Positions 22,474 to 40,122 of a stretch of 64,000 bases of DNA are shown here, piece after piece. The notes below the pieces were generated by a model. It did not search any database, had not been told where the DNA came from, and saw only the letters and a program-made list of their open reading frames with translations. Positions within the stretch are counted from its first letter, which is position 1. Every line of letters starts with the position of its first letter. This DNA is from an uncultured Ginsengibacter sp. (GTDB lineage Bacteria; Bacteroidota; Bacteroidia; Chitinophagales; Chitinophagaceae): NCBI GenBank assembly GCA_964526985.1, contig CAZGNJ010000004.1:94618-158617 (forward strand). The letters run 5' to 3'. The position numbers were made by a program, and so were the translations under genes.

Positions 22474-23790
22474 TCAATTGCTGAGTGCACTATCCAATAT
22501 TTTCCTAATTTGCACTAAATCCTCATTACCGGAACTACGGAAAATAATTTTACCCCCTGGATTTAAAAGAATGTAGGTAGGATACGCCTGGACTAAAAAC
22601 CTTACTGAAGTAAGCGTATCTATTTTATCACCTGTTGCCGGTTGGTAGATTAAATGCCATGGAATTCCATGTTCTTTCTCAAACACTGCGAACTTTTCTT
22701 TATTGTCTTCGTGTTCAACAGCTATACTTGCCATGCTAAAATTAGAATTGCTGCTAAATCTTTCATAGATTTTTTTTAACTCTGGAATCGCTTCAATGCA
22801 GGGCTTACACCAAGATCCCATAAAATCTAATAATACATATTTCCCTTTATTTCGGTTTGTTGAAAATACATGCCCTCTGGTATCAATATGGTACATCATT
22901 GGTGCAGAAAGACCAATATCACCACCTGCGGCTGTAGATGAAACCGATGTCAGAAAAGCTTTGCTCAAATCAGGAGCTACAGAATCCACCTTGTAAAATT
23001 CATGCCTGCTCAGGAAGGGGTCATGCAGCTTATAATATTTATCATTATTTATACTATCTATTGTTCCAGCATAAAATGTAGAATAGCCGGTAAACCTGGA
23101 GATAGGTATCTGGTTGCTGATATATAAAAACCCGCCATCAGGCAATTTTGCCTTCCATATATTATCACCGGATATCAGAATGTAAAGATTCTCTTCCTGA
23201 GGATCAGGGTAGGTTATGTTTACCAATTTTGATGGGTGGAAATATAAATTCTGAGTTTCTTGATAAATTTTCCCTTGATAAAAATATTCGAGAGTTGGGT
23301 TTATATTAATAGCTGCTTTAAACTTGTTGGGATAATTTTTTAGTGAATCAATATTAAAAGAGAAAACCGAGTCGTCCTCAAAATTTTTATCGTTGTTGCA
23401 ATCGAAGATATAAAAGCGATTATTTCCTTTTCTATAAATCAATATGCCTATACTGCTATTTACAGATGATTTTGAAAGAGACAGGGTGTCGAGCCTGAAT
23501 AAATTAATCCATTTTAATAATTTAATTTTTTTTTCCTTACCAAGCAGATAATTCGAATATAATGTTTGCTCAGGCTGAATATCGTACAGCTTGATAACAT
23601 AGTTGCTATCTATGCTGGATGGTATTTTATACATGCCCCGATCATTTTCAAGTTTCTGAACACCCATATAACTCCACAAATTATTAAAGGATGACACCTG
23701 CCTTAAAGGAACACAAAACGTATTCTGTGATTGAGAACTGGATGTGAAAAATATCTGGAGAAATACTATTACAACACGTGACTTTAACAT
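22474..23790 (-). CDS. TlpA/ResA-family thiol-disulfide oxidoreductase with an uncharacterised N-terminal region
   Basis: Signal peptide-like start; DCNNDKNFEDD (Ca-binding-like); KGKYVLLDFMGSWCKPC; QAYPTYILL cis-Pro loop. Confidence 0.88.
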   Translation of the reverse strand: MLKSRVVIVFLQIFFTSSSQSQNTFCVPLRQVSSFNNLWSYMGVQKLENDRGMYKIPSSIDSNYVIKLYDIQPEQTLYSNYLLGKEKKIKLLKWINLFRLDTLSLSKSSVNSSIGILIYRKGNNRFYIFDCNNDKNFEDDSVFSFNIDSLKNYPNKFKAAININPTLEYFYQGKIYQETQNLYFHPSKLVNITYPDPQEENLYILISGDNIWKAKLPDGGFLYISNQIPISRFTGYSTFYAGTIDSINNDKYYKLHDPFLSRHEFYKVDSVAPDLSKAFLTSVSSTAAGGDIGLSAPMMYHIDTRGHVFSTNRNKGKYVLLDFMGSWCKPCIEAIPELKKIYERFSSNSNFSMASIAVEHEDNKEKFAVFEKEHGIPWHLIYQPATGDKIDTLTSVRFLVQAYPTYILLNPGGKIIFRSSGNEDLVQIRKILDSALSN

Positions 23791-23859
23791 ACTATATAAA
23801 TACCTATTTATCTTATATTGAAATACCTTAAAGAAAAATACAATGATAGTTTCTTCATA

Positions 23860-24209
23860 TTACACATCGACATGTCCCCTGCTTCCGCAAACACTGTCAT
23901 TTACACATCTGGTTATATTGCCATCACAAATAACTGCTACAACAAAACTATAATCCGCTCCCCCGTTTTCATCTTTGCAATATCTCGTTTTACAATCAGA
24001 GCCACTACAGCTAACAGTAAGCAATCCTGTTTTACATTTAACGGAAATTGAGCAGCCTTCTCCCCCACTTCCACTTTGACAAAATCCATTTACACATATT
24101 TGCCCGGGAGGGCAATCTGCATCGTTCATACATGGACCCCAAGACCACTTGTTACATTTTGTCGTTCGGTTTTACTAAGACTTCTGCCTAATTTTTTCTG
24201 TTGTTTCAT
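23860..24209 (-). pseudogene. Cys-rich peptide precursor with a double-glycine-type leader, split by a 1-nt frameshift at a G4 run (24137-24140)
   Basis: ATG at 24209 gives MKQQKKLGRSLSKTERQNVTSGLGVHV*; adding one G gives ...VTSGLGGPC fused to the 89-aa ORF MNDADCPPGQICVNGFC...; 12 Cys in the restored core. Confidence 0.75.
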
Positions 24210-24227
24210 TTTTTTAAATTTTTAAGA

Positions 24228-25841
24228 TTAAAAGAAATATATGATGTCCTTGAGTTCATACATTCTTGGTAATTCATATCCGTCAACAAAACAGGTCGGG
24301 GTATATCTAATATTCATCTTTTCGCACCAGCTACTCATAGCCTCCAGTTCCTTCCCAAATAACAGCAAATTTTCTTCGATGGGGTAACGTTGCTCAAATG
24401 TAGCATAATTCCTTCTTTCCGCGCCATACCAATCCTTCAACGCGGCCTCGACAATTCTTTTGTCCTTGAGATTATTTAAAGCCATGAAATGTTTGACAGG
24501 AGCAGCCTTTATATCCTTCTCACTATTTTCTGCTGTAAAAATAATTTGAAGCTTAATGTCCGGATTCGCTTCCAATATTTCTTCAATATCCCTATGGGCT
24601 TTTGCGCAGGGACCACAATATGGATTACACACCTTAACTAAAGTATGCTTAGCGTCCGGATTCCCTATCATAATACCTAACCCTGCTGTTGGTTCACTTA
24701 TTTTCCTTTGACTTTGAAGAATAGAATGAAATACCTGAGGATGATACTTTAACCTGGCAGCTTCTTTTTTATAATTACCGGCACTTCTCGCTTTTCTCAA
24801 AAGAGGTTTTAAAAATCCCCCGATTAAAAGAGGAAAAATAAAGGAAATAAATACCGATATAAATAAAGACATATTAAAAGACGAAAGAGGTATCAGATAT
24901 GGGGTATTGGCGTTATAACACACAACCATTTGTGACATTAATATGACCTGTACGGTAATGCACAAATGACACCACTGTCTTACTTACCATTGATAAGTTA
25001 CGGAATAAATAACAAAGGGAAGAGCTACGACGTTTAACCACGAAAAAAGAGGCATTGATAACCCGGGCTGCCCAAAAAAAGACAATAAAAAAATAAACTC
25101 TCCTGTAAAATACAAAAACCCTATTTCACTCCAACCAATTACCCCGAAAAGCTTTGCTGCTTTAGAATCTAAAATTGCGTTACAACCGGCATTTTTTTCC
25201 GAAGTGCAAAATTGCTGCAATACTGTATTGTCGTGAGTAATCCCAGTCCACGATAATATACCACTTATAATAACGCCTAAAAAAGTTAAAAACATTAAGA
25301 TACCCGGCCATAAACCGCCCGCATCGAAATTAATTACCCCATATAACAAGACCGCTACAAAACCGAACCCTAATGAGATAGGAATGTAATTTCTACGCCA
25401 AAATTCTTCTCTTCTCTTTTTATCATATTCCGGTTCACCAGCATCTGGCTCAGGATAAGGCAACAAAACGATACGGCTCCATTCTTTAAAAAAATCTTCT
25501 CGGCTCTTTGTTTTTGCCTTTCCTCCATTATCCAGATACGTAATATCTGTTTTGATATCAGTTACTACAAAAAAATACCCGCCGCTATCATCTGTATAGG
25601 CAATGAACGGAACTGGTAAATCGTTCAATCTATTTTCTTCTACCTCTATACAAGCATTATTAATTTTCCATTTCCTGAGACTGTCGCTTATGCTATCCAA
25701 ACTTGGAAAAAAAGGGTGATTCTCTAATGTTTCCTCAACAGTAGAAGCCGTAACATTTATAGATAAGCTGTTAATTAAATTTACCGTTACGGCTGATACA
25801 TTCGATTTTTGAGAAGGATAAAAGACTTTTTTCAAGAGCAT
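24228..25841 (-). pseudogene. C39-like domain / VKOR / thioredoxin (DsbA-like) fusion interrupted by an in-frame TAA at 24984-24986
   Basis: The two ORFs share a frame: YQW*VRQWCHLCITVQ; N-terminal HPFFPSLDSISDSL and LPVPFIA (C39-like); VKOR loop pair CTSEKNAGC..S; VKOR CxxC (CHLC); thioredoxin NPYCGPCAKAH and YTPT. Confidence 0.85.
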
Positions 25842-25957
25842 AAAAGAAAATCTTTTAAAATTACATCCTGGCTAAAACTGTAAAATCCACACAATTCATT
25901 TTCACTGCTTATAAAGTTAACTATTTCAACTGTAACCGAAACCTGACAGATTAATTA

Positions 25958-27145
25958 TCACTTCATTATCTCATCAATTTTTTCATAAATAGCTTCATCT
26001 TCTCCCACATACCTTGCAACGATATCCCCTTTTGGATCTATGATGATCTTCGTAGGAAACCCTGCGACGCTGTATTTGAGAATCAGATCATCATCGGGCC
26101 TGCTGAGTACCTGGTGCCATTGATAATCCTTATTCTTATCAAGAAACCTTCTCCAATTTGTGCCGTCATCAGATTCCTGTGCTATGCCAACGATTGTCAT
26201 TTTGCTTTTGTACTTGTCAAAGTATTCTTTCATTTTCGGCATACCGGATACGCAAGGCCCACACCAAGTACCCCAGAAATCCAGGACAACATATTTCCCT
26301 TTTAATGATGATAAATCAAATTGCTTTTTATCATAGGTGTGCATCGATTTTATCTCCGGTGCAGGTTTGCCGATAGCCGTAGCTCTCAGTCCCTCAATAC
26401 GTTTTACTACCTCAATGAAAAAAGGATTGGTATTGAGTTTCTTGTGATCCATTTTGTCGTACAGCGAAAATGATTCTTCTTTTGTAACCTGCGTTCTCAG
26501 CATCATATCGCCTAACAGCCATGCAGACGCGTAAGAGGAGGGATTGTCTTTGATAAAATTCTTTTTGATTTGGTCAACTTCCGCATCCAATGCATCCGCT
26601 TTCGCTTGCATCGACTTCATTTCAACCGTATCTTTAAATTGCTTTTTGGCAATCTTTACAGCCAGGTTAACACTTTCATTCATCAACGGATACACTGCTT
26701 TATTTAACCTTGCGAGGTCATTATTTGCCGGATCCCCTGACGGGTATGCATCTACGAAATCCGTGATCTTTCCGGTGATTTTCACGTGTGCACCGGGATA
26801 GACGATACATTGAAACTGGGAAGACTTTGCAGGAAAGTATCCACGATCAACTCTTTTCATCACGCTTTCGTTGGGAGGCCAGAAATTCAGCATTTTCATC
26901 TCATCAATTTTGCGGCTGTAAGTAAAGGCTCCATCCCTCACAATTGCAGAATCTCTTACAGTCGTTCCACTTTTGTTTTTGTAGAAAAAACGAATGGGTT
27001 TGGATTCGAGTCCGTCAATCTTTCCTGAAATCGTGAAGGTGCCTTCCTGCGCAAAGAGGGATGGGGAAAAGGCCAGCAGCAAAATGGTCAATAAATTTTT
27101 CATGATTACACTTGTTTTATGTTGTTTTTTGTTCCAAAATTTCAC
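25958..27145 (-). CDS. DUF4369-type N-terminal domain plus TlpA disulfide reductase (likely start 27103)
   Basis: Signal peptide; FTISGKIDG..DSAIVRDGAFTY; LKGKYVVLDFWGTWCGPC; AGFPTKIIID. Confidence 0.92.
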   Translation of the reverse strand: MKFWNKKQHKTSVIMKNLLTILLLAFSPSLFAQEGTFTISGKIDGLESKPIRFFYKNKSGTTVRDSAIVRDGAFTYSRKIDEMKMLNFWPPNESVMKRVDRGYFPAKSSQFQCIVYPGAHVKITGKITDFVDAYPSGDPANNDLARLNKAVYPLMNESVNLAVKIAKKQFKDTVEMKSMQAKADALDAEVDQIKKNFIKDNPSSYASAWLLGDMMLRTQVTKEESFSLYDKMDHKKLNTNPFFIEVVKRIEGLRATAIGKPAPEIKSMHTYDKKQFDLSSLKGKYVVLDFWGTWCGPCVSGMPKMKEYFDKYKSKMTIVGIAQESDDGTNWRRFLDKNKDYQWHQVLSRPDDDLILKYSVAGFPTKIIIDPKGDIVARYVGEDEAIYEKIDEIMK

Positions 27146-27167
27146 GTTCTCACTGTAAACACCTTTA

Positions 27168-28703
27168 TTATGAGTGTGCCATCACTATTTCGATCATATT
27201 CTTCAGTACATCCTCATTGTGTTCATCTGTCCTGAAATTCTTGTAGATGATTCTTCCATCTTTATCCAGCAGGTAATTGGTTGGCGCACCGATGTATCCC
27301 ATATTTCCTCTTTCACGCCCTTTAAAATCTTCAAGCGGGACAAAAGTATAGCCACTGTGCTGCATGAATGGAATTACATAATCATTCTGGCTGGCTTCAA
27401 TATTGATCCCGATATACTCCAGATTTTTACCTTTGAACTGATCCACCACATTCTGGAAGTGCGGAAATTCACCCCTGCACGGTCCGCATCCCGGAAACCA
27501 ATAAGTAAGCAACACTACTTGTCCTTTCAGGTCATCCAATGACATTTTACTATTCGCAGGATACCTGTTGAGGGAGAACGATGTTGCTTTTTGTGCAGCC
27601 TTGTCAAGGATCGTCCACGTTTCATTACTGACTTCGTTCTTATTTTTATTCAACAACGCACCATAAGCATATACCTGTTCTTTGATCTTGTCGGATGGAT
27701 TGACTGCATAATAATTCAACAACATATCGTAGGCATCATTCAGCCTGTTGTTTTCCTTATATGCCTGTGCTTTCAGAATCAAGAAATCCTGTTTTGCATC
27801 CATTCGCTTATTTAATTGAATCGTGTCCAATATTTTAATCGCATCACCATACTGTCCAGCCTGCATCAACTCCTTTGCTTTCTCAATATTAAGTGCCCAG
27901 TTCAATTGCTTTGCCCACATTGCCTTGCTTTTCTCATCTTTGGAACCATCCAGTACTTCCTTCGCAAGAGAAGCAGCCTTCTTTGTTTGTGGCATTAATA
28001 CCAGGTCGTAAAATGATTCCTTCATATAATCACCTATACTTGTAAGAGGGTATTTCTCTTTCAATAGCTCATAAAATTTGACACGTGTATCAAAATTTTT
28101 ACTTGCTAATGCCACAATGGAAATAGCTGTTTTTGTACGATCACTGTTTGGAAATTTCTTTACCATATCTAAAACGAGTGCTTCCCTTCTGGCTGGGTCA
28201 TCATCGAAGGACAAAGCATAGTAAAATGCATAGTCAGGATCTTCGGGTGCGATCTCCTTTGCTTTGCGCAGATATTCAAAGCCTTCTTTAAATTTCCCCC
28301 AGCGGTCTGCATCGATCCATAATTCAAAATAGGCTTTGTCCATCTTTGGATTTAGTTCGAGTGCCTTTAGCAAGTAAGGTTTTGCGGCAGGGCTTTCTTT
28401 GGACCAGTAAGCATTTCCCAATGCAAAAGGTAAAATGGCCGATTTCGGATATTGCTTCATCCATTTCTTATACTGTTCAACGAATGCCGGATCATCCTTG
28501 GCACCATATTTACCAAAACCAGTGGCTTCCAAATAACGCTCGTGAAGGCCGATGTTGTCTGGATCCTTTGAAATAGAATCTGCAATTTTTTTCATCAGTA
28601 CAGGATCTGATTGTGAATTTTTATCAGTCTGTGCAATAGATGCCTGCCTACCGCTTACTAAAAAAAGTAATGGCAACAAAATGGTCTTAAGAAATAATTT
28701 CAT
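27168..28703 (-). CDS. TPR-repeat plus TlpA-like redoxin, paralog 2
   Basis: Signal peptide; TPR helices (LLKALELNPKMDKAYF); VVLLTYWFPGCGPCRGEFPH; GAPTNYLLD. Confidence 0.9.
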   Translation of the reverse strand: MKLFLKTILLPLLFLVSGRQASIAQTDKNSQSDPVLMKKIADSISKDPDNIGLHERYLEATGFGKYGAKDDPAFVEQYKKWMKQYPKSAILPFALGNAYWSKESPAAKPYLLKALELNPKMDKAYFELWIDADRWGKFKEGFEYLRKAKEIAPEDPDYAFYYALSFDDDPARREALVLDMVKKFPNSDRTKTAISIVALASKNFDTRVKFYELLKEKYPLTSIGDYMKESFYDLVLMPQTKKAASLAKEVLDGSKDEKSKAMWAKQLNWALNIEKAKELMQAGQYGDAIKILDTIQLNKRMDAKQDFLILKAQAYKENNRLNDAYDMLLNYYAVNPSDKIKEQVYAYGALLNKNKNEVSNETWTILDKAAQKATSFSLNRYPANSKMSLDDLKGQVVLLTYWFPGCGPCRGEFPHFQNVVDQFKGKNLEYIGINIEASQNDYVIPFMQHSGYTFVPLEDFKGRERGNMGYIGAPTNYLLDKDGRIIYKNFRTDEHNEDVLKNMIEIVMAHS

Positions 28704-28821
28704 GGTATTCTAAATTTAATTTTTATTAATTCATTTTATTAATTTGAAGTGCAGTATTAGTATTGCGAAAAGATTATCTTTCATCCGGATTGACTGACAA
28801 TCAAATGCAAATAAGGTATTC

Positions 28822-28843
28822 AAAAAAGGGGCTTTCGCCCCTT
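28822..28843 (-). terminator. Rho-independent terminator inside the TlpA array
   Basis: Minus strand AAGGGGC-GAAA-GCCCCTT-TTTT (GNRA loop). Confidence 0.8.
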
Positions 28844-28886
28844 CATCACCTAAGGGAACACATGAGAAAACTTTTCCAAAAATTGA

Positions 28887-30014
28887 TTATTCAAATATTT
28901 CCTGCAACTTCTTTGACAACTCTTCCCCGCGTACATTTTTTGCAATGATCTTTCCTGATGGATCTATCAATAAATTCTGAGGGATGGCCCGGATCCCATA
29001 TTGCTTCGCAACAGCATTATCCCAAAACTTCAGATCACTTACATGATTCCACCACAATCCGTCTTTGTGAATTGCGTCTAACCATAACTGTTTCTTACCG
29101 GGCTGATCCAATGATACTCCGAGTATGGTAAAGTTTTTATCCTTGTATTGATTGAATGCCTTTACAACATTAGGGTTTTCAGCACGGCACGGGCCGCACC
29201 AGCTTGCCCAGAAATCTACCAGCACATATTTGCCTTTGAAATCCGAAAGCGATACAGGTTTGTCCAATGTATCGTTCTGTGTAAAGTTCATAGCCATGGC
29301 GCCCACTGCTGTCTTCTTCGCTATCTCGATCCGATCGTGCAGTGATTTACCTGAAAATGAATTTTTATTGGCTTCTGAAAGTCCCTTAAACAAAGGTTCA
29401 GCAACGGCCGGGTCTATATCATAGCCTACAAATTGATTCAGCAATGTCACTACAATCGGAGATGATGGATGTGACTGAATGTAAGGCTTCACTACCTTTT
29501 CATTCTTGTCTTTTACCATAGCCTCGTATTCATCCTGTATAGACTGCATACCCGCAAGGTCTTTTGCTTCCCTGAATTTATTGTACCTGGGGCCGAATGT
29601 CGCTTCCTGCTTGTCGTAAGGCTCCAGGAGTTTATTATAGGCTTCATATTCTTTCTGCGCTTTGGAGCCGGTTACTTTCGCAGACTCAAGAGAATCCTTA
29701 GCGATTACCTTGATGTTTCCAGCCTCGAGAAAGATATTCATATTTTCAGTCTTAGCTCTTTTCTCATTTTCCTTTTTGGGAAATCTGATGACAAGTGTAG
29801 CAAGTGTAGGCTCCTGTATTTTTCCTTTGAAGGCAAATACACCATTTTTTATATCAGCACTATCGGTGATTCTTTCATCACCGTTTCTGAAATAAAGCAG
29901 TGCTTTTTCTACCGGCTCTTTGAATGAGATTTTGCCGTTCAATTCAAAACTCTGTGCGTGCACATAAGAAAAGCCGGTGAAAAATAAGAGAAGGAATAAA
30001 ATGATCTTTTTCAT
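28887..30014 (-). CDS. DUF4369-type domain plus TlpA disulfide reductase
   Basis: Signal peptide; DSADIKNGVFAFKG; FKGKYVLVDFWASWCGPCRAENP; RAIPQNLLID. Confidence 0.94.
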   Translation of the reverse strand: MKKIILFLLLFFTGFSYVHAQSFELNGKISFKEPVEKALLYFRNGDERITDSADIKNGVFAFKGKIQEPTLATLVIRFPKKENEKRAKTENMNIFLEAGNIKVIAKDSLESAKVTGSKAQKEYEAYNKLLEPYDKQEATFGPRYNKFREAKDLAGMQSIQDEYEAMVKDKNEKVVKPYIQSHPSSPIVVTLLNQFVGYDIDPAVAEPLFKGLSEANKNSFSGKSLHDRIEIAKKTAVGAMAMNFTQNDTLDKPVSLSDFKGKYVLVDFWASWCGPCRAENPNVVKAFNQYKDKNFTILGVSLDQPGKKQLWLDAIHKDGLWWNHVSDLKFWDNAVAKQYGIRAIPQNLLIDPSGKIIAKNVRGEELSKKLQEIFE

Positions 30015-30061
30015 TTGTATTGATGTTTAGAATATTTTTTTTAAAATCAGATTCGTGGATT

Positions 30062-31687
30062 TTAATTCCCTTTGCTTTCCATTCCTCTCTCCAGCATTTG
30101 ATGTATCATGGCTTCCAATACATCCTCATTACTTCCATCAGTACGGATATTCTTAAACACAATTTTTCCATCCTGGTCTATCAGGAAATTCACCGGAGCT
30201 GCGCCGCCATTGTCTAAGTTGCCTTTCTTTCTTCCTTCAAAATCTTCCAATGGCAAAAATGTGTATCCGCTGGATTTCATGAATGGAATGACATAATCAT
30301 TTTGTTCCGGCACAATGTTGATACCTACATAAGCAAAATCTTTTCCTTTGAACTTATCCACTACATTCTGAAAATGCGGAAACTCTCCCCTGCATGGCCC
30401 GCAACCGGGAAACCAGTAAGTCAACAAAACCACTTTGCCTTTGAAATCAGAGAGCGATGTTTTTCCCTTAGTGAAATAATTGTTCAGCGTAAATGGTGTG
30501 GCAGTCTTTGCAAGTGTATCCCTGATCTCCCACACATCATTCATAACCTGCGATGCATTCCTCCCTAACTGTGCTCCATATTTTTTCAAATCCTGTCCAA
30601 TCTCTGTTTCGGGCGATTTAGCATAGCTGAACTTTAAATCATCGTAAGCTTTCTCTACATTTCCTGAAGCGGCGAGTGCATTCGACTTCAGCAAGAGGAC
30701 TATATCTCTCGCGCTGGAATACCTGCCAAACTTCATGCTGTCCATTATAGCGATAGCTTCATTGTATTTCTGCTGTTTCATCAGACCTTTTATCTCAACA
30801 AGATCTTTGGCAGTAGCAGCAGATTGTTCCCAGCTTTTCTTATCTCTGCCTTCCTTCGAGATGGTGACCATATAATCAGCAAGGCTTTCAGCTTTTTCTG
30901 GTGATTGCTTTTGCAACAGTTCAAAATAATTGTACATGCCTGATGACGACCATCCAAATTTCGAAGGTGGAAACTTGTTTTTCAGCATTTCAAAATACTT
31001 CACCTTATCAGCATTGTCCTGGCTTCTCACCGCCACCCAATATAATGCCTGTGCGCCTCTCTCACTATCCGGAAATTTATCGGCAACTGCTTCACTCAAT
31101 GTTACATACTTTGCAAAATCTTTATCATCCCATGTACCTGCATAATAAAAAGCATAGTTTGGGTCATCCGGTTTTATTTCGGATGCTTTCCTGATATATT
31201 CTGCCCCTTTATCAAATTCACCCCATCTTTCCGCATCTATCCACAGGTCAAAATATGCCTTATCAAATTTCGGATCTATTGCAATCGCTTTCAGCAACCA
31301 GGGCTTTGCTTTCGGACTTTCTTTGTCAGCATAGGCATTGCCAAGCGCGTAAGGAAGTGCTGCAACTTTAGGATACTTCTTCATCCACTTTTCATACTGA
31401 TTGCTAATGGCAGGATCATCCTTAGCACCCCACTTTGTGAATCCGGATGCTTTGAGATAAGCTTCATGCAGATCAAGATTCGAAGGATTTTTTTCAATGG
31501 CCATTTTCAGGCTATCCATTGTTTTTCGGGAATCATCCTGAGCCTGGGCATGAAGGCAACACAGCAATAGGCCGATCACCAATGTGCTAAAAACAATTTT
31601 TAAATTTTTCATCAAGATTAGTTTTTTTGTGAAGAAATTATAAGCAGCATGTTGGTAAGGAGTTGAATAATTCTTTACTAACATCAT
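30062..31687 (-). CDS. TPR-repeat plus TlpA-like redoxin, paralog 1 (likely start 31612)
   Basis: Signal peptide; TPRs; KGKVVLLTYWFPGCGPCRGEFPHFQNVVD; AAPVNFLID. Confidence 0.9.
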   Translation of the reverse strand: MMLVKNYSTPYQHAAYNFFTKKLILMKNLKIVFSTLVIGLLLCCLHAQAQDDSRKTMDSLKMAIEKNPSNLDLHEAYLKASGFTKWGAKDDPAISNQYEKWMKKYPKVAALPYALGNAYADKESPKAKPWLLKAIAIDPKFDKAYFDLWIDAERWGEFDKGAEYIRKASEIKPDDPNYAFYYAGTWDDKDFAKYVTLSEAVADKFPDSERGAQALYWVAVRSQDNADKVKYFEMLKNKFPPSKFGWSSSGMYNYFELLQKQSPEKAESLADYMVTISKEGRDKKSWEQSAATAKDLVEIKGLMKQQKYNEAIAIMDSMKFGRYSSARDIVLLLKSNALAASGNVEKAYDDLKFSYAKSPETEIGQDLKKYGAQLGRNASQVMNDVWEIRDTLAKTATPFTLNNYFTKGKTSLSDFKGKVVLLTYWFPGCGPCRGEFPHFQNVVDKFKGKDFAYVGINIVPEQNDYVIPFMKSSGYTFLPLEDFEGRKKGNLDNGGAAPVNFLIDQDGKIVFKNIRTDGSNEDVLEAMIHQMLERGMESKGN

Positions 31688-31745
31688 ACTGAAATTCCAA
31701 TAATTAAAATTGAGGTTATCATTATTTTTAATTCATCATTAAGTC

Positions 31746-32888
31746 CTATTTAATAATATCACCCAATCGCTTTAACAAGTATTCACCATGCAGGCCTCTT
31801 TCTATAATTTTACCTTGCGGATCAATCAGGAAGTTATCAGGAATAGGTTGGACACCATATAATTCCGCAACCTTATTCGGCGACTTCAAATCCGAAATAT
31901 GTGTCCAGTGTAATTGATCTTTGGTGATCGCTTGCTTCCAACTCTTACTATCCTGATCTACGGAAACACTAATGATTGTAAAATTCTTGTCCTTGAACTT
32001 TTCATAAGCAGCTTTTAAAAACGGGTTATCCTTGCGGCAGGGGACACACCAGCTTGCCCAAAAATCCAATAAAACATATTTGCCTTTATAATCAGAAAGA
32101 GTAACAGGTTTCTTATTTACGTCATTCATTGTGAAGTCAGGAGCAGTCGCTCCAATCACACTTCTTTTTCTTCCTTCTATTTTTGTTGGCAACTTTGAAA
32201 GTATGGCTAACTGCTTTACCTTGTCCCCGAGATTATTGTAGTACGTTTCCAGTTGGGATACAGGAATGTTATCTGCGATCAGCATTAACAGCATTCCGCT
32301 GGCAAAGGAGTTCGGATGCTCTGCCACAAATTCATTTTCAAATAGGGCGACAGAATCTGTAAGTGCCACAATTTCATTCATTAAATTTTTATATTCCACA
32401 GATGATTTGTCAGTAATCGTTGCAATTTTCTTTTGGAGAACACTCCTGCGATCATAGTAAATATTCATTTTGCTCATCGCGTAATTGTATTCATCATTGC
32501 CAGTAGTTCCGTTTACAATTGTATGTGTGAGGTCCTTATTGTTTCCATTGATTGTAATATCTCCCTTTTCAATTAAGAAAGTGAAATTTCCATTTGTTGA
32601 CCTTCCGGCTGTTGTCTGGGCCCATACAAAGGAGGGGATAGACGCCGTACCCTTATAATGAAAATGATCATTTTTTGTAGGAATAATAATCATCTCCCGC
32701 TTTTGATTTTCGGAAAAGACACTCAGGAAAAGTGTATCATTATTCATCCCTTTTATCTGTCCTTTGATGGTATAGTTAAAGGAGGTTTGTCCGAAAACTG
32801 TTCCACCCAGTGTCAGACAGATTATTACTAGCAAAACTCTTAATTGCAAAAAGATCGAGACGAATCCAAAATTGACATTTAAAACCAT
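31746..32888 (-). CDS. DUF4369-type domain plus TlpA disulfide reductase
   Basis: YTIKGQIKG; IGATAPDFTMND; YKGKYVLLDFWASWCVPCRKDNP; QPIPDNFLID. Confidence 0.93.
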   Translation of the reverse strand: MVLNVNFGFVSIFLQLRVLLVIICLTLGGTVFGQTSFNYTIKGQIKGMNNDTLFLSVFSENQKREMIIIPTKNDHFHYKGTASIPSFVWAQTTAGRSTNGNFTFLIEKGDITINGNNKDLTHTIVNGTTGNDEYNYAMSKMNIYYDRRSVLQKKIATITDKSSVEYKNLMNEIVALTDSVALFENEFVAEHPNSFASGMLLMLIADNIPVSQLETYYNNLGDKVKQLAILSKLPTKIEGRKRSVIGATAPDFTMNDVNKKPVTLSDYKGKYVLLDFWASWCVPCRKDNPFLKAAYEKFKDKNFTIISVSVDQDSKSWKQAITKDQLHWTHISDLKSPNKVAELYGVQPIPDNFLIDPQGKIIERGLHGEYLLKRLGDIIK

Positions 32889-33050
32889 TTCTGTTATTAA
32901 TTAATAATTCTAAGGGATTATGCTCTAATAAGAATCATCCTTTTCAGATATTCGCGTCATACACTCGAACTATTCCGGCTTAAAGGGATGGATTTTTAAA
33001 GTAGCTTCCACCCCTTCCTTTCCTAAAGAGCACATTTTATTACTAAGATC

Positions 33051-34604
33051 CTAATAACTATTTTGTTCAATCACACCCTGGCTACTGATAATTTCAGTAC
33101 GAGGAATCGGTGTAGCATATCTTTTTGAATTCTTATCCAGCGTATAAGTAATTGGAGCCTGGTTTGCCTGCACACTTGATGCAGTGAATGGATAAAAAGT
33201 CTTGGTCACTACTACATCATCATTCGGATCATCATTATTGTTGATCCTGCGCAGATCGAACCAGCGCATAGTGAAAGGCATCTCTCTTCTTCTCTCTTCC
33301 AAAATAATTTTGATGGCTACATCTTTTGATTCAGCAGTGAGCGCCGGAGTACCTGTTTTCATTCTCTTGACACGAAGCATATTCAATGCAGACATAGCAC
33401 CAGGCACATCACCTGTACGTGCAAGGCACTCTGCTTTGATCAGGTACATTTCTGCAGTGGTAGGCCCGCTTGGTACCCTGTCTTTGAAAAAGAAGATATA
33501 ACCCGGATAGCTATAGGACGGTTTTACCATACCCCGGTCGTAAGAGTAATCTTCTACTATGTGATACTGATATCTGAGGTCATTGTCTTTATCATAGAGA
33601 TCGAGCAATTCCTGACTTGGCACATACCACCAATAACCGAAGTTCAACATTCTAAAGTACAGAAATTCTTTCCATCCGATCATATCAGTTACAGCTATCT
33701 GGTTGTCGTGGGTATAAGGATACTTTAAGGTTACCGTTTGCTGCTGTGGGGTGCCAGCGTCAACAGTTACTGACCTATCCCTCCCATAATACATTTCCGT
33801 ATTGTAATCTACGAGAACGTTATACTTGTCAAGAGCCGCGTTAGCGTATTTGAGCGCTTCCGTATAGTTATTTCTTTGCAAGTAATACCTGGCTGCAAAT
33901 CCATTCACTGCTGCGGTATTGGCTCTCCAGTTTCGGTTCACGCCATTTTGAACAAGTGCCACGTTTATCTTTAAAGCTTCAGCCAGGTCGGACTCTATCA
34001 GATCATACACTTCAGAAAGGGGCACTCTCTTCACATTCTCTTCAAAACTTACACTCTTTTTTAATGGGAGGCCAGGTGAATTTTTGTTAGCATCAGTATA
34101 AGGTAGGCAATAAGTATTGGCCAACTCAAAATAACTATATGCTCTGATAAAATGTGCATCTGCTCTTAAATTATCCTTATCAGTTGCCGGCCCTGAAACT
34201 TTGTCTAAGTTTGCTAAAACCATATTGGCTCTGAAAATTTTACCATATTCATCACTCCAGAAGGTACCGTTGTATCTATCATCTGAGATGAAATCATTCT
34301 CCCAAAACGCATACTGCGCTAATGGTACAGGGAAAATTCCCGGGTTGGCATTGTATAAGTCGAGAGCCAGGCCATAATCATCTGTACTGAGCATGGCTGT
34401 AAGGTTAGACTCTGAGTAAAATGAAGCATAATTGTTGAGAAGCGCATTCAACTGCTGCGTGGTAGTCACCACTAACGAAGTGGTTTTTGAAGGCTTCTCA
34501 TCAAGAAATTTCTTACACGACTGCGTGGTTATAACGAGCACAGCAACCATTGAGATGTTGAAAATATTTGAAATATTTTTTTTGAATGTGTTATACATGT
34601 TCAA
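33051..34604 (-). CDS. RagB/SusD family outer-membrane lipoprotein
   Basis: Lipobox TQSC followed by KKFLDEKP; WSDEYGKIFRAN; AHFIRAYSYFEL; EMYLIKAEC; EERRRE..RWFDLRR; directly after SusC. Confidence 0.93.
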   Translation of the reverse strand: MNMYNTFKKNISNIFNISMVAVLVITTQSCKKFLDEKPSKTTSLVVTTTQQLNALLNNYASFYSESNLTAMLSTDDYGLALDLYNANPGIFPVPLAQYAFWENDFISDDRYNGTFWSDEYGKIFRANMVLANLDKVSGPATDKDNLRADAHFIRAYSYFELANTYCLPYTDANKNSPGLPLKKSVSFEENVKRVPLSEVYDLIESDLAEALKINVALVQNGVNRNWRANTAAVNGFAARYYLQRNNYTEALKYANAALDKYNVLVDYNTEMYYGRDRSVTVDAGTPQQQTVTLKYPYTHDNQIAVTDMIGWKEFLYFRMLNFGYWWYVPSQELLDLYDKDNDLRYQYHIVEDYSYDRGMVKPSYSYPGYIFFFKDRVPSGPTTAEMYLIKAECLARTGDVPGAMSALNMLRVKRMKTGTPALTAESKDVAIKIILEERRREMPFTMRWFDLRRINNNDDPNDDVVVTKTFYPFTASSVQANQAPITYTLDKNSKRYATPIPRTEIISSQGVIEQNSY

Positions 34605-34610
34605 ATAGAT

Positions 34611-37600
34611 TTAAAAGGTGAATCTTGCGCCGAAAGTGTACTGAGGCATTGGTTTCATAAATCCTTTGGGATACTCCGGATCTTCGCCATATTTGTTGGC
34701 AAGGACAGTGAACAGGTTATTTCCCTGTGCATAGACTTTGAAATCACCCTTCATGCGAATTTTTTCCAGCAATCGGTGAGGAATGTTGTAGGTCAGGTTC
34801 ACTTCCTGCATTCTCAGGTGGGAAGCGCTTTGTACCAGATAGCTCATGAACGGATAGAAACGATCCCAGAAGTAAAACCTGCCTTCATCCTGGTTGAGGG
34901 GGAGTGGAACTACCTTATTCGGATCTCCATTCATTACTTCTGAGATTGCACTGTTAGGTAATACCCGGGTTGTCCACAAAGGAGGATAATTGAATGACAT
35001 CCTGTTAAACACATGGCCGAACTTGCCGGTAATAATGAATGAAAAGTCAAAATCATAAATCTTGAATTGGCTGGTAAATCCAAACCCGTAAGGTGCCACA
35101 GTAGTCCCCATATCAAGTAAGTAGTCGCGCCCATCGCCAGGTGTCCATGTTGAAAAGTCATATACATCTTTCCCTGAGCCTTTTACTGTAGGTTCTTTGT
35201 CGGACTCCCTGATTCCTGCATATTGAAAAGCCCAAAGCGTATTGGCGTTCTTGCCTTCAACATAGGCGGAAGTTCCTCCATAAAAGAGCGAGTAGGCAGC
35301 GTAGTTAGCTACAAACAGTTTGGTGATCTTATTACTGTTGTAGGAAAAGTTCATACTTCCCCGCCATACAATATCATTTCCTTTCAGTCTCGTTGTAGTA
35401 CCAAGGGTCAATTCAACTCCCCTGTTCGCCATCTCTGCATTGTTCAATTTTTGAGATGTGGTACCATTTGCTGCAGGAATTGAAATGACAGCAATCAAAT
35501 CTTTTCCTTGCTTATTATAAACATCCAGTTTTCCAAATAACTTGTTATTCAGCATACCAAAATCGATACCCAGATCCCAGGTTCCGGTACGCTCCCAGCG
35601 AAGAGTCGGGTTTCCAAAGCTTGAAATGGTTGCAGTAATATCTCCTGTATAAACATTGGGACTGGAACCCATAGAAATGAGTGGACGGAATGCAGTTGAT
35701 TTGTCAACATTACCGTTGTACCCATAAGTCAAACGAACACGCAGCATATCCAACCAGTTAGCACTTTTCATAAAATCTTCCCTTAGTATATTCCATCCTG
35801 CACCTATGCTCCAGAAGGGTTCATACCTGTATTTGGGATCATCGGTGATCAGGTTGGAAGCATCTGTTCTGGCACTACCTGAAATGGTATATTTCTTATT
35901 GAAGGTATAGGCAAGGTTGCCATATAAGGAGAAGTACCTGTCTGTCCTGTACGAAAAAGAATTTGTGTAGGAAAAGTTCTGAGTAAAACCCTGCCAATCG
36001 ATCAATCGATTTACTCCGCCCGGGCCATTTGGAAAATTTCCAACGGTTAATGTTTCGTCATTGTATCCGTAGGTAACAGGATATCCATTCGTTTGAGAAA
36101 CGATATTATTAATTTCCGAACCTGCAACAAGAGTAACCTCATGTTTGCCGGCAAATTCCCTGTTGAAGTTCAACTGATTTCTGAAATTGTACGCGTTCAC
36201 ATTCTGCCTGCTCTGGGTAAGGATACCTCCCATCGGTAGATTACGTGTAAATTTATTTGCAGCAGGATCCCACGTAGTGCTTTGATTCACTGTTTGCCTT
36301 ACATAAAATGTCTGGTCATTATACAATCCCCTGTTATCATAGGATATATACTCATACTGCAATTTACTGTCAAAACTTAATCCCCTTATGATATGAAATG
36401 TCAACCCACCCTGCAATCTCATATTGATTTGTTTGGTAGTAAGATTCCTGTTCCTCATTTCCTGCACGGGATTGTACGCCCAATTTGCATAAGGAAATTT
36501 ATCCATAGGCACATATCGCACCATCGCAGGCCAATAATACCGGTTGATATTGGTGTAGTTACCATCATTATCCAACAACATATCATAGGGAGCCAGCCCT
36601 TGAATATCATCTAATGACACACCACTATTGTGAATGTCATTGAACTGTACCATACCGTTTAGATTGAAATCAAGCCACTTGAAAACTCTCGCAGAAGAAC
36701 GATAGTTCAACATGTAGCGGTTGTTGTAAGTCCTGGTAAAGTTGGATTGATTGGTTTCATAGAGCAACGAAAACATGTTGCTCATGCGTTCACTACCACC
36801 ATAGAGTGTCAGGTTCACTTGCGTACTTGCCGGATTGGAAAGTAATAAATCAGAGATTTGTTTTTTATTGCTTAATCCTCTGAGTTTGTCCAGTTCTGTA
36901 TTCATCTCAGATTCTGTGAGGAACCCGAGATTGTATTCATTGATAGCTGTCGAAGCCGGAGAATAAGCGAAAAAAAAGTTATCAAGGCTTCCATTATTTA
37001 CAAGTGGGGACCAGTTCTTGCTAAAGAGGAGTTTTTCATAGTCAACAGTCTGAGAAGAGGATGCCAGAGGATTTACATAATCCAAATCAAATTTTTGCCC
37101 AACTCTTCTGAATACATTCAGATCAATTTTCAATGGCATCCCATTCTTTGCTCTCTTTGTCGTGATTACAATTACGCCATTTGCAGACCTTGCTCCCCAG
37201 ATAGAGGCTGCTGCTGCATCTTTCAATATGGTTACACTTTCCACATCATTTGGATTGATAGAATTCAAATCACCTTGTATGGCAAATCCATCTACAACAA
37301 TCAATGGCTGTGCATTTGCATATAAGCTTGTTTGCCCACGAATCTCAAAAGTAGGATTGCCATTTACATCCACAGTCGCCTGTACGCCTGCGGCCTGCCC
37401 GATCAATCGTGAACCAATATTGGTAGATGGGTTGTCCAACTGCTGTGTGTTGATAACATCAAATGAACCTGTGGCTCTTTCCTTAGAAATTGTTTGATAA
37501 CCTGTGCTCGCTACAACTATTTCTTGTTGCTTCGTAATATCTATGGACAATTTCACATTGATTTGTGCACGCCCTTTTACAGCAATAGTTTGGGAAGAAT

Positions 37601-38156
37601 ATCCTACTCTCGAAAAAACCAATGAACTGTTATTGTCCACAACGATAGAATATGAACCATCTGCTCCGGTGCTGGTTCCCTGGTTCGTGCCTTTCACAAC
37701 AACACTTACTCCTTCAAGAGGGTTTCCTTCTTCATCAGTCACAATTCCTGTAATCCTGATGGGTGGGGATGGCAGTGGTTCACTCAACTCCATTAACCGA
37801 TTCTCAACCGGTTTGTTAATTATGGTTACAGTCCTGTTCTCCATAATCCATGCTAAAGGCTGATCTTTTAAGGCTAAATCCAGGGCCTCTGTAACTGATA
37901 CCCCTTTGACATCGATGGTTACAGGTTTTGCCTTTTGGATCAGTCCCTGATCATAAAAGAAAACGTACCCGGTCTGGTCTTTGATTTCCTTAAAGACTTT
38001 GGTTAAAGACAGATCCTTTCCTGAAATGCTCACCTTCTGCGCATTCGTTTTAGCAGAAACATTCAGGAATCCCAAAATCATAAAAATTATCACAAACTTC
38101 ATAGACAGAAGGATTTGCCGTGGTACCGGCGGAACCCGGTAATAAGAAAAATGCAT
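34611..38156 (-). CDS. SusC/RagA TonB-dependent transducer with an N-terminal STN signalling domain
   Basis: STN (QKVSISGKDLSL..IKDQTGYVFFY); CarboxypepD-like domain (GNPLEGVSVVVKGT); plug PLIVVDG, ILKDAAAASIWGARSANGVIVITTK; C-terminal Phe. Confidence 0.96.
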   Translation of the reverse strand: MHFSYYRVPPVPRQILLSMKFVIIFMILGFLNVSAKTNAQKVSISGKDLSLTKVFKEIKDQTGYVFFYDQGLIQKAKPVTIDVKGVSVTEALDLALKDQPLAWIMENRTVTIINKPVENRLMELSEPLPSPPIRITGIVTDEEGNPLEGVSVVVKGTNQGTSTGADGSYSIVVDNNSSLVFSRVGYSSQTIAVKGRAQINVKLSIDITKQQEIVVASTGYQTISKERATGSFDVINTQQLDNPSTNIGSRLIGQAAGVQATVDVNGNPTFEIRGQTSLYANAQPLIVVDGFAIQGDLNSINPNDVESVTILKDAAAASIWGARSANGVIVITTKRAKNGMPLKIDLNVFRRVGQKFDLDYVNPLASSSQTVDYEKLLFSKNWSPLVNNGSLDNFFFAYSPASTAINEYNLGFLTESEMNTELDKLRGLSNKKQISDLLLSNPASTQVNLTLYGGSERMSNMFSLLYETNQSNFTRTYNNRYMLNYRSSARVFKWLDFNLNGMVQFNDIHNSGVSLDDIQGLAPYDMLLDNDGNYTNINRYYWPAMVRYVPMDKFPYANWAYNPVQEMRNRNLTTKQINMRLQGGLTFHIIRGLSFDSKLQYEYISYDNRGLYNDQTFYVRQTVNQSTTWDPAANKFTRNLPMGGILTQSRQNVNAYNFRNQLNFNREFAGKHEVTLVAGSEINNIVSQTNGYPVTYGYNDETLTVGNFPNGPGGVNRLIDWQGFTQNFSYTNSFSYRTDRYFSLYGNLAYTFNKKYTISGSARTDASNLITDDPKYRYEPFWSIGAGWNILREDFMKSANWLDMLRVRLTYGYNGNVDKSTAFRPLISMGSSPNVYTGDITATISSFGNPTLRWERTGTWDLGIDFGMLNNKLFGKLDVYNKQGKDLIAVISIPAANGTTSQKLNNAEMANRGVELTLGTTTRLKGNDIVWRGSMNFSYNSNKITKLFVANYAAYSLFYGGTSAYVEGKNANTLWAFQYAGIRESDKEPTVKGSGKDVYDFSTWTPGDGRDYLLDMGTTVAPYGFGFTSQFKIYDFDFSFIITGKFGHVFNRMSFNYPPLWTTRVLPNSAISEVMNGDPNKVVPLPLNQDEGRFYFWDRFYPFMSYLVQSASHLRMQEVNLTYNIPHRLLEKIRMKGDFKVYAQGNNLFTVLANKYGEDPEYPKGFMKPMPQYTFGARFTF

Positions 38157-38217
38157 AGATTTGGTTTTTAGTTTGAAATGAATGATACTAGCAAGTTTTA
38201 TTTTATTTTGAACGCTG

Positions 38218-38242
38218 CCGGAAATGTTCGCTGCATTTCCGG
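38218..38242 (-). promoter_or_regulatory. Hairpin between fecR and susC
   Basis: CCGGAAATG-7nt-CATTTCCGG; no U-tract on the coding (minus) strand. Confidence 0.55.
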
Positions 38243-38263
38243 TTTTGTTTTTCTTTAAATCCT

Positions 38264-39478
38264 TTATGGTGATACAATGATCTTCTTACCTACAATATTG
38301 AAGTGAATATTATTCTTACTCAATAAATTCAACACTTGTGAGAGTGAAAGGTTCCTTTGCATTTCCCCTTCAAACCTCCGGTCAGGAATATCTCCCTGGT
38401 AAATGACATCCACATCGTACCACCGGCTCAATTGTTTCATCACCATTTCCACATCTGCATGCCTGAAGAAGAAGTATCCGTTTTTCCAGGCCATTACTTC
38501 ATCTAAGTTTACATCGTTTAAAACTACGATGCCCTTATTCTGATTACTTGTCACAGCCTGCTGCCCCGGAGTGATCCTGCTTTTCTTGCCTGATGATTCA
38601 ACCGCAACTGAGCCTTCCAACAGTGTAGTCCTTGTTTCTCCATCATATCCTTTGATATTAAAATGAGTACCCAGCACTCTCACATCCGTATTATTTGCAG
38701 TAACAAAAAATGGCTTTGAAGCATCATGTGCTACTTCGAAATACGCTTCGCCTGTCATGGATACCTTTCTGTCATCACCAACAAAGGCTGTCGGAAATGT
38801 GACTGATGACTCCGCATTCAGCCACACCTTACTTCCATCAGCCAATACCAGTTGATATTGTCCGCCGCGGGGTGTTGAAACTGTGTTATAGGAAACTGTT
38901 GTATTGGATGAGGATGATGAAAAATCATATTCTATCTTACCATCTTTCAGTTTGGTAACGGTTACATTGCCCTGTTTGGAGATAGCGCCATTGTTTGCTG
39001 AATCCAATAATATTTTTGTTCCGTCTGCCAGAGTAAGAACTGCTTTGTTACCCCCCGGAGCCACATCCTGTCCTGTATTGGCCATTGACTGAGTCTGAAT
39101 CCTATTTTGGGAAGTCTTATTCTGATAAAAATATCCAACCAGGAGTATCAGCGCTACCGAAGCTGCGGCTGCATAAGCAATGATTCTTCCATACCTGCGG
39201 CCAGGATGCATTACTACTACATTATCACCTAACTGCTTTTGTATTTTTTCCCAAATTATTCGCTCTTTACCTTCTGCCGGTGTTGCATGGCTAAGTGTGA
39301 TTTCATCCAGTATAGCTCTCGCTTTTCGTATTTCATCTGCTTTATCAGGATTGGCCTCCTCGTAAGCATTCCAGAATTTTTCATTTTCCGCATCAGGGAA
39401 CTTTACCCACGAAATAAAATGATCATCTACTACGAACTCTGCCGCAGTATAATGAGCATATTCTTTGATTCTTGCCAT
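38264..39478 (-). CDS. FecR-family anti-sigma factor
   Basis: FVVDDHFISWV; TM AAAASVAL; TPRGGQYQLVLADGSKVWLNAES; GEAYFEV; VLGTHFN; AWKNG. Confidence 0.95.
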   Translation of the reverse strand: MARIKEYAHYTAAEFVVDDHFISWVKFPDAENEKFWNAYEEANPDKADEIRKARAILDEITLSHATPAEGKERIIWEKIQKQLGDNVVVMHPGRRYGRIIAYAAAASVALILLVGYFYQNKTSQNRIQTQSMANTGQDVAPGGNKAVLTLADGTKILLDSANNGAISKQGNVTVTKLKDGKIEYDFSSSSSNTTVSYNTVSTPRGGQYQLVLADGSKVWLNAESSVTFPTAFVGDDRKVSMTGEAYFEVAHDASKPFFVTANNTDVRVLGTHFNIKGYDGETRTTLLEGSVAVESSGKKSRITPGQQAVTSNQNKGIVVLNDVNLDEVMAWKNGYFFFRHADVEMVMKQLSRWYDVDVIYQGDIPDRRFEGEMQRNLSLSQVLNLLSKNNIHFNIVGKKIIVSP

Positions 39479-39552
39479 AATTTTCCTATTCCTTGTTAAT
39501 AAATTGAGGAATCGATTCAGGAAAATGCCCCACTAAATGGCAACTTTTTTTT

Positions 39553-40122
39553 TCAGAAACTACCAATAAAGAAAATGTTGAACAATTTCGACCCTAAAAT
39601 CATGCGCAATGCAATGATAGACCTGGCAGCGAGCTTGTAGGTAGCTCTGGTCTGCATGTTCATAATCTCGGCAATATGGTCATAAGAGAGGCCTTCAAAA
39701 AAACGGTAATAGACTATTTCTCTTTGGCGTGGAGTGAGTTCTTCAAGAGCTTTATTTATCCTGGAGGAAATGGCAGATGAATTTTCTCCTTCTATAACTC
39801 TTTGTTCTATCGAAACATCAAAATCAAATCGCATCACCTCTTCTTTATATATAGTACGAGAGCGCTCCCGAAACAATTGAATGACCTGGTTTCTGTATGC
39901 ACGCAGGAGATATGCTTTTTCCGATTGCGGAGTTGACATCCTGGCTCTGTATTTCCAAAGATTCAGAAAGGTCTCTTGTATGGCATCTTCCACGAGGTCG
40001 ACATCTTTGCTCATGCGCAATCCATAATTGTACAGATCATTAAAATATTTCTTGTACAATGCTTCTAACGCAGTAGTATCATCATCTTTTATTCTATCCC
40101 AAATCGCATTGGCTTCAGCCAT
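39553..40122 (-). CDS. ECF sigma-70 factor (Bacteroidota expansion family)
   Basis: ALEALYKKY..LYNYG; DAIQETFLNLW; LTPRQREIVYYRFFEGLSYDHIAEIM. Confidence 0.95.
   Translation of the reverse strand: MAEANAIWDRIKDDDTTALEALYKKYFNDLYNYGLRMSKDVDLVEDAIQETFLNLWKYRARMSTPQSEKAYLLRAYRNQVIQLFRERSRTIYKEEVMRFDFDVSIEQRVIEGENSSAISSRINKALEELTPRQREIVYYRFFEGLSYDHIAEIMNMQTRATYKLAARSIIALRMILGSKLFNIFFIGSF

Follow-up and report, generated by a model that had tools for sequence, protein, structure and literature searches.

The gene at 25841-24228 on the minus strand of the analysed stretch of DNA (the window, 64,000 nucleotides from an uncultured Ginsengibacter sp.) is a pseudogene, with an ordinary nonsense lesion just ahead of the VKOR CxxC motif of a C39-like/VKOR/thioredoxin fusion. 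We consider it probable that this copy is a nonsense pseudogene whose intact relatives would be cytoplasm-facing membrane oxidases, gripping the leader of a Cys-rich peptide and adding disulfides before its export.

A nonsense lesion ahead of the VKOR CxxC

The 285-aa ORF (25841-24984) and the 245-aa ORF (24965-24228) lay on the minus strand and, as the first-pass annotation had claimed, in one frame; TGG TAA GTA AGA CAG TGG TGT CAT TTG TGC read W*VRQWCHLC, with the TAA at 24984-24986. When the stop was read through as X, the 537-aa product matched three Pfam models above cut-off, bearing out the proposed tri-domain layout: Peptidase_C39 at residues 22-131 (42.1 bits, cut-off 22), the VKOR domain (PF07884) at 181-307 (48.7 bits, cut-off 27.5) and Thioredoxin_4 (PF13462) at 389-524 (35.0 bits, cut-off 23.2). 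The same read-through had zero NCBIfam model matches. By ORF and Pfam evidence, the 5' ORF (24984..25841, minus strand) encodes the C39-like domain, an extra TM helix and VKOR TM1-TM3 with the loop cysteines C212 and C220 (25182..25208, minus), and ends at the premature TAA, codon 286 (24984..24986, minus). Its 285-aa product was present on 3 contigs in the protein collection. The orphaned 3' part (24228..24983, minus) holds the VKOR CxxC helix with the redox motif CHLC (C291, C294; 24960..24971, minus), TM5 and the DsbA-like thioredoxin domain. The loop and CHLC positions were Cys in 120/120 homologs. The CGPC of the thioredoxin domain (C409, C412; 24606..24617, minus), preceded by a third invariant cysteine, C405, was placed by the homolog alignment and the model domain match, and the Thr-Pro loop of this domain was conserved (T514 in 119/120 and P515 in 117/120 homologs). 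C405 (24627-24629, minus; 120/120) and C506 (24324-24326, minus; 115/120) are possibly a structural pair.

Only the codons GTA AGA CAG TGG separate the TAA from the first CxxC cysteine, so no restart can retain the CxxC. The four VKOR cysteines are not on one chain in this copy, the TAA parting the loop cysteines from the CxxC, and the stop costs the product both the CxxC and the CGPC domain, as predicted from the letters alone, since both lie beyond codon 286 and no restart precedes C291.

Contigs from three other studies, dated 2017, 2020 and 2023, bridged the TAA with 0 other letters and 0 gaps: X3 (24843-25094), X5 (23821-25424) and X7 (24906-25068). X1, a possible source of the assembly, carried the same letters. 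Eight of the 24 listed runs were compared, all as contigs, which lose rare alleles; four of them cover the stop, and the other four had no piece over it among the pieces listed (531 more lay beyond the listing). The exact match in contigs from three independent studies ruled out an assembly error, showing that the stop at 24984-24986 is genuine on this contig-based check. The host organism was found mainly in activated sludge and wastewater runs, with no RNA run among those listed. The residue aligned to the stop was R or K in 111/120 homologs and H in P0002. Run X9 contributed a contig of low depth with one gap at 25636-25905, either another indel or an error.

The closest homolog among those listed, P0002, is intact, 537 aa long and 71% identical to this copy. 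All 120 homologs listed were 487-579 aa long, in a protein search of 295-940 aa only (7999 candidates) that had split forms outside its reach; by exact look-up, the clusters of the 285-aa and 236/245-aa pieces had no full-length member. A metagenome scan with P0002 returned one locus at 40% and did not recover P0002's own contig. The main copy was broken in 5/81 other loci, by frameshifts or stops at three other positions, and relics were present in 5 more of the 81. This set (the best 80 of 575 genome matches plus one) includes related genomes that are not independent, and its selection by score favours intact copies. Of 300 genomes sampled from the bacterial family, 57 contained the gene, and 3/77 other matches carried stops. 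The marks of a recoded or naturally split gene, namely a conserved stop position, a suppressor tRNA and a usable second start, were absent: TAA was the commonest stop of the genome's long ORFs (811/1639), and TAA is read by no tRNA gene in the incomplete set of 23 that was recovered.

This copy departed from the conserved columns at 11+10 positions, compared with 12+12 in P0002 and a family median of 2+3, of 53+70 columns; departures no greater than in the intact P0002 suggest a fairly recent lesion. Between YQW and WC the copy was one residue short relative to 119/120 homologs. The first-pass annotation had correctly suspected the missing residue, but it is no part of the lesion: P0002 (YQWHARKWC) lacks it too, indicating that the deletion is older than the stop and ruling it out as a second lesion.

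Lesions elsewhere in the peptide pathway of this genome

The adjacent precursor (23860..24209, minus) starts at 24209 and stops after 27 codons of leader; its core, with 12 Cys, lies in another frame, and the shift falls at a G run (24137-24140), as shown by ORF reading and comparison with P0126. This intact 115-aa relative spans both frames, matching the leader at 20/24 and the core at 79/92 positions, and the same letters were present in X1, X3, X5 and X9 (X7, with 29 letters on one side only, was excluded); the precursor lesion noticed earlier is thus genuine. P0002 and P0126 each lie on a 7,247-nt contig, a pairing that rests on equal size and source only. The 'SG' of the leader was ruled out as a lesion, since the intact P0126 has SG too.

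No PCAT or PCAT remnant was found in the 64-kb window by tblastn to E=1, in agreement with the initial reading. The genome-wide search for a PCAT in the source assembly (G000, 99% complete by markers) gave two remnants, both outside the window and both truncated: a 103-aa C39-only stub on contig C5 and, preceding an open HlyD gene on C55, a copy that shifts frame at a G run and breaks off near residue 260. The assembly contained no whole PCAT and no other match above 39% identity to the family PCATs. With the oxidase stopped, the precursor frameshifted and both PCATs truncated, peptide production looks lost, which upholds the earlier proposal of a decaying producer arm; its loss in this lineage appears to be fairly recent.

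The C55 remnant belongs to a second peptide locus (C55:18950-23578), where the PCAT shifts at a run of 14 G and is then interrupted by non-coding, partly duplicated DNA of about 1.1 kb; the 14-G run could be a sequencing artefact. This locus also contained a 113-aa ORF resembling the family's HTH-type neighbours and, close to where the contig ends, an intact precursor of 65 aa and 6 Cys. At a third locus (C5:49054-52118), two TlpA-like genes, both open, flank the PCAT stub; a Cys-rich ORF of 66 aa and 7 Cys is also present there, and its worn leader escaped the leader profile. A second VKOR-thioredoxin paralog, 42% identical to P0002, is represented by its 3' end at C86:1-634, upstream of the S10 ribosomal protein operon. 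It is cut by the contig start and may be intact. C86 carries the assembly's only S10, L3 and L4 genes, indicating that it belongs to G000.

The C39-like domain and its predicted leader binding

The C39-like domain (residues 9-131; 25449..25817, minus), assigned from Pfam PF03412 and a model match, is catalytically dead and putatively leader-binding. Its catalytic positions hold V15 for Cys and Y89 for His in the alignment, confirming the reported absence of both. Among the homologs, the catalytic Cys was kept in 12/120, the His in 2/120 and both in 0/120. A dead protease is therefore a family-wide trait, so it fails as the sign of decay for which it had been taken, and it was ruled out as a lesion of this copy. 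The domain has the fold of a C39 peptidase (PF03412) without the catalytic Cys and His, and it is not part of a PCAT, no ABC membrane or ATPase Pfam match lying behind it. P0047, P0061, P0064, P0076 and others form a sub-branch with Cys at the C39 catalytic position (12/120) and without the His.

The C39-like domain in the P0002 model matched 6MPZ with Z 15.4 and rmsd 2.5 over 122 aligned residues. When the C39-like domain of a homolog was modelled together with its own leader (the L045 pair), the complex scored 0.49, against 0.02 for the best control, with 88% contact agreement and a partner pLDDT of 63. The mark set for such complexes was reached by 116/157 solved and 2/215 mismatched pairs, and at or below 0.60 by 18/157 solved pairs and both mismatches. 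C39-leader look-alikes such as 6MPZ have been solved in the PDB, so the score may reflect likeness to them. The model hints that the C39-like domain may bind a GG-type leader.

Conserved gene order and cysteine-rich precursors in the family

The named homologous loci came from Bacteroidota, mostly Chitinophagaceae and Sphingobacteriaceae. Across the 81 loci (best 80 of 575 plus one), 122 leader-bearing small ORFs were found with a leader profile built from these same loci; 116 had at least 4 cysteines and 6 were dropped. A GG-leader precursor lay at most 450 nt downstream of the oxidase in 61 of the 72 loci with enough flank. The Cys count was even in 110/116 precursors, compared with 54-74/116 for seven control residues, and in 102/108 after redundancy removal. 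The cores were hypervariable and mostly carried 6-8 Cys.

The conserved gene order was oxidase, precursor, TlpA, PCAT, HlyD. In the 48 loci that had 8 kb of flank on either side, a precursor was present in 46, PCAT in 38, HlyD in 36, TlpA in 34 and SusC in 6; a PCAT within 10 kb was absent from 10/48 and a detected precursor from 2/48 of these full-flank loci. Three congeners have the gene, with a full PCAT about 3 kb away in two and the third on a 2-kb contig. The gene order, the even-Cys bias and the transporter linkage support the role of dedicated disulfide maturase that was first proposed from this single locus, here for GG-leader peptides. Among 36 family precursors, NCBIfam matches at E<=0.01 were weak (NF047798 in 11, TIGR04149 in 6 and NF047792 in 3).

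A knottin-like C-C-CC-C-C spacing, by a loose pattern, occurred in 10/122 precursors (L071:11722, L068:2310/2592/2864, L054:11779, L094:12076 and others). Glycosyltransferases (17/48 loci), DUF6625 (7/48) and DUF6734 (4/48) recurred in the family clusters; such neighbours, for example L055:8568, L047:16290 and L087:7686, hint at tailoring such as glycosylation. Short GG-leader ORFs with 0-1 Cys lay directly upstream of the oxidase at L084:9800, L056:9798, L019:500 and L077:9709, possibly encoding signalling peptides.

The redox relay and its predicted orientation

The four VKOR cysteines together with C405, C409 and C412 were invariant in 120/120 homologs. The AlphaFold model of P0002 (pLDDT 92, pTM 0.83) showed six long helices across the membrane region. 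Residues 176-322 of the model aligned with residues 17-162 of the Synechococcus VKOR 4NV2 (Z 13.3, rmsd 3.5, 141 aligned), leaving one extra helix before TM1. The thioredoxin domain matched ScsC 6MHH with Z 17.1 and rmsd 2.5 over 152 aligned residues, followed by BdbD (Z 15.9) and MdbA (Z 14.2). CGPC is the motif of reducing thioredoxins, which leaves the oxidising direction of electron flow in the family a putative one.

An N-terminal hydrophobic stretch was absent in 120/120 homologs, so the C39-like domain is expected to be cytoplasmic. Two helices lie between this domain and the Cys loop, and six in all precede the thioredoxin domain. Mean K+R was 18.5 on the side with the C39 link, Cys loop, CxxC loop and thioredoxin link, versus 0.9 on the opposite side; the bias had the same direction in 120/120 homologs, also when only the two internal loops were counted. 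These topologies came from our own hydropathy and charge counts. The VKOR and thioredoxin sites of the family are thus predicted to face the cytoplasm: the extra helix, the lack of a signal peptide and the charge bias together place the entire relay on the inner side. Judged by prediction alone, the family departs from the periplasm-facing arrangement of bacterial VKOR-DsbA fusions. With a relay predicted to be cytoplasmic, complementation of dsbA/dsbB mutants would be expected to fail even with a working enzyme. No match to DsbB or to a second VKOR domain was found in G000.

According to the accessible part of a 2026 paper, bacterial VKORs are outward-facing and only some archaeal ones face inward, and VKORs from viruses, humans and rats do not obey the positive-inside rule (10.64898/2026.03.26.714578). 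Since such rule-breaking VKORs are known, charge bias is no proof of orientation for a VKOR fold.

Comparison with known systems

The C39 domains of PCATs (PCAT1, LahT 6MPZ, ComA) and the C39-like domain of HlyB share the fold of the family's N-terminal domain (Z 13-16). HlyB-type C39-like domains are non-catalytic substrate binders. Unlike the C39 domains of PCATs, that of the family lacks the catalytic Cys/His pair and the ABC membrane and ATPase domains, and is joined to a redox enzyme. The Synechococcus VKOR-thioredoxin fusion (4NV2) has the same VKOR fold, four VKOR cysteines and a C-terminal thioredoxin-fold domain after the fifth helix. It differs in that the family has an extra N-terminal helix and the C39-like domain, which invert the predicted orientation, as well as a DsbA/ScsC-like partner with CNPYCGPC and linkage to peptide-export genes; the present copy is, moreover, broken.

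The catalytic cysteines of Aeropyrum pernix VKORi face the cytoplasm, as is only predicted here; compared by its description in the accessible part of the source, VKORi is archaeal and is not described there with a leader-binding fusion or with peptide clusters (10.64898/2026.03.26.714578). Bacteroidetocin clusters, as far as the accessible text describes them, likewise belong to Bacteroidetes and encode GG-leader peptides, which probably contain disulfide bonds, along with an ABC transporter bearing a peptidase and a dedicated thiol oxidoreductase (PMC6671954). Their leaders are 15 aa long and their 42-aa cores hold 4 Cys, and separate genes encode a 5-TM protein and an oxidoreductase (PMC6671954, same portion). 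That portion names neither 'C39' nor VKOR, and the likeness is by description (PMC6671954). In contrast to the bacteroidetocins, cores in this family mostly have 6-8 Cys, are hypervariable and are paired with TlpA and HlyD. The leader type is catalogued in NCBIfam, as NF047798 (leader_Chryseo), TIGR04149 and NF047792 (CCPGW), with weak matches.

The C39-like/VKOR/thioredoxin fusion was not found in the literature searched, which took in a minority of subscription papers and not the main ones on VKOR topology, and it is not named in the accessible parts of 10.64898/2026.03.26.714578, PMC6671954, 10.1101/2024.07.15.603639 and PMC12453122. No description of an inward orientation for a bacterial enzyme of this type was found in the same literature. 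The family is a variant of the VKOR-DsbA fusions, probably one that faces inward and is dedicated to disulfide-rich exported peptides. The broken copy itself represents ordinary gene decay and would make a poor subject for experiments. If the orientation holds, the family would extend to bacteria a catalysed disulfide formation in the cytoplasm that, for VKORs, the accessible part of the source describes only in archaea (10.64898/2026.03.26.714578). A protease domain would then have been reused as the substrate gate of an oxidase, and the family would open up a large natural pool of disulfide-rich peptides, whose production in E. coli it could serve as a leader-targeted tool.

Proposed mechanism and alternative explanations

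In the mechanism that we favour, the C39-like domain would bind the GG-type leader in the cytoplasm and the DsbA-like CGPC would receive electrons from the core thiols, passing them via C212/C220 and C291/C294 to menaquinone. The PCAT would then cut the leader and, with HlyD, export the folded peptide past the periplasm; gating by the leader would spare ordinary cytoplasmic proteins from the oxidase. Export by PCAT and HlyD (type I secretion) is expected to bypass the periplasm, and an inward oxidase fits this peptide family because of that route and because G000 has no DsbB match. A wider picture is conceivable, although we regard it as doubtful: Bacteroidota would make widespread, undescribed disulfide-rich ribosomal peptides, some knottin-like; an inward VKOR-DsbA enzyme, gated by the leader and driven by quinone, would fold them in the reducing cytoplasm for export as whole peptides; the cognate periplasmic TlpA would be a disulfide-breaking immunity protein, and this genome would be a non-producer keeping its immunity genes.

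Two alternatives accept that the copy is dead and differ on what the family does. An inward-facing enzyme might instead keep the precursor reduced or reshuffled for export, or sense redox, with disulfides formed after export by air or by periplasmic TlpA. The thioredoxin-like CGPC and the isomerase ScsC among the top fold matches speak for a reducing or reshuffling role, and the hydrophobic N terminus of 72/74 full-length TlpA neighbours for disulfide formation after export. However, the fold matches to the oxidases BdbD and MdbA are almost as good (Z 15.9 and 14.2), PCAT and HlyD export is expected to skip the periplasm, and neither DsbB nor another VKOR was matched in G000. VKORs, moreover, move electrons from thiols to quinone, as stated in the accessible part of 10.64898/2026.03.26.714578, and the cytoplasm is already reducing; we judge this role quite unlikely. 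We consider it improbable that these enzymes share the outward orientation of other bacterial VKOR-DsbA fusions and oxidise peptides or TlpA partners on the periplasmic side: their soluble N-terminal domain of 140 residues lacks a signal sequence, the two helices after it return the Cys loop to that domain's side, and the charge bias points the other way in 120/120 homologs. A gene still functional, through read-through of the TAA or a natural split, would accord with a stop fixed in every compared run that covers the position and with a frame past the stop that is still open and keeps all catalytic cysteines. We nevertheless hold it to be extremely improbable: no start codon lies ahead of C291, TAA is the genome's main stop with no suppressor tRNA in the incomplete set of 23, the three main-copy in-frame stops of known context elsewhere in the family are at other positions, and the substrate gene and both transporters are also broken.

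The remaining alternative, compatible with the mechanism that we favour, concerns why production was lost. The first-pass annotation had suggested a cheater, or immune-only, state, in which production would be lost by selection and TlpA kept as putative periplasmic immunity that reduces cognate peptides. An intact TlpA-like gene (22474..23790, minus; 438 aa, hydrophobic N terminus, WCKPC) follows the broken precursor in the family pattern. The pairing is strong across the family (TlpA after 65/116 precursors, a precursor before 65/86 TlpA genes), and the TlpA proteins look exported. In G000, where lesions affect the oxidase, one precursor and both PCATs, each of the three precursor-linked TlpA genes is open. 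Against this, the target-length chance that the lesions miss all three is 0.19 for 3 point lesions and 0.06 with 2 truncations added; the HlyD gene is likewise open, 12/86 family TlpA ORFs are shorter than 330 aa, so that some may decay too, and the peptides of this family have no known toxicity. In the bacteroidetocin cluster, by the accessible text, the thiol oxidoreductase, a different protein, is required for the toxin and gives no protection (PMC6671954). With a chance of about 0.19, an open HlyD gene and upstream TlpA genes beside non-core SusC/SusD, the cheater state is unsupported and we judge it unlikely; the TlpA gene may merely have escaped lesions so far, or may have a different redox role.

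Those upstream genes, five TlpA-like genes behind SusD and SusC at 25958-40122 (minus), include two with TPR repeats and three with DUF4369, and resemble the family TlpA proteins at 25-34%. As parts of the system, they and SusC/SusD were not supported, SusC occurring in 6/48 loci. Further upstream, 38264-39478 and 39553-40122 appeared by eye to encode a FecR-like protein and an ECF sigma factor-like protein.
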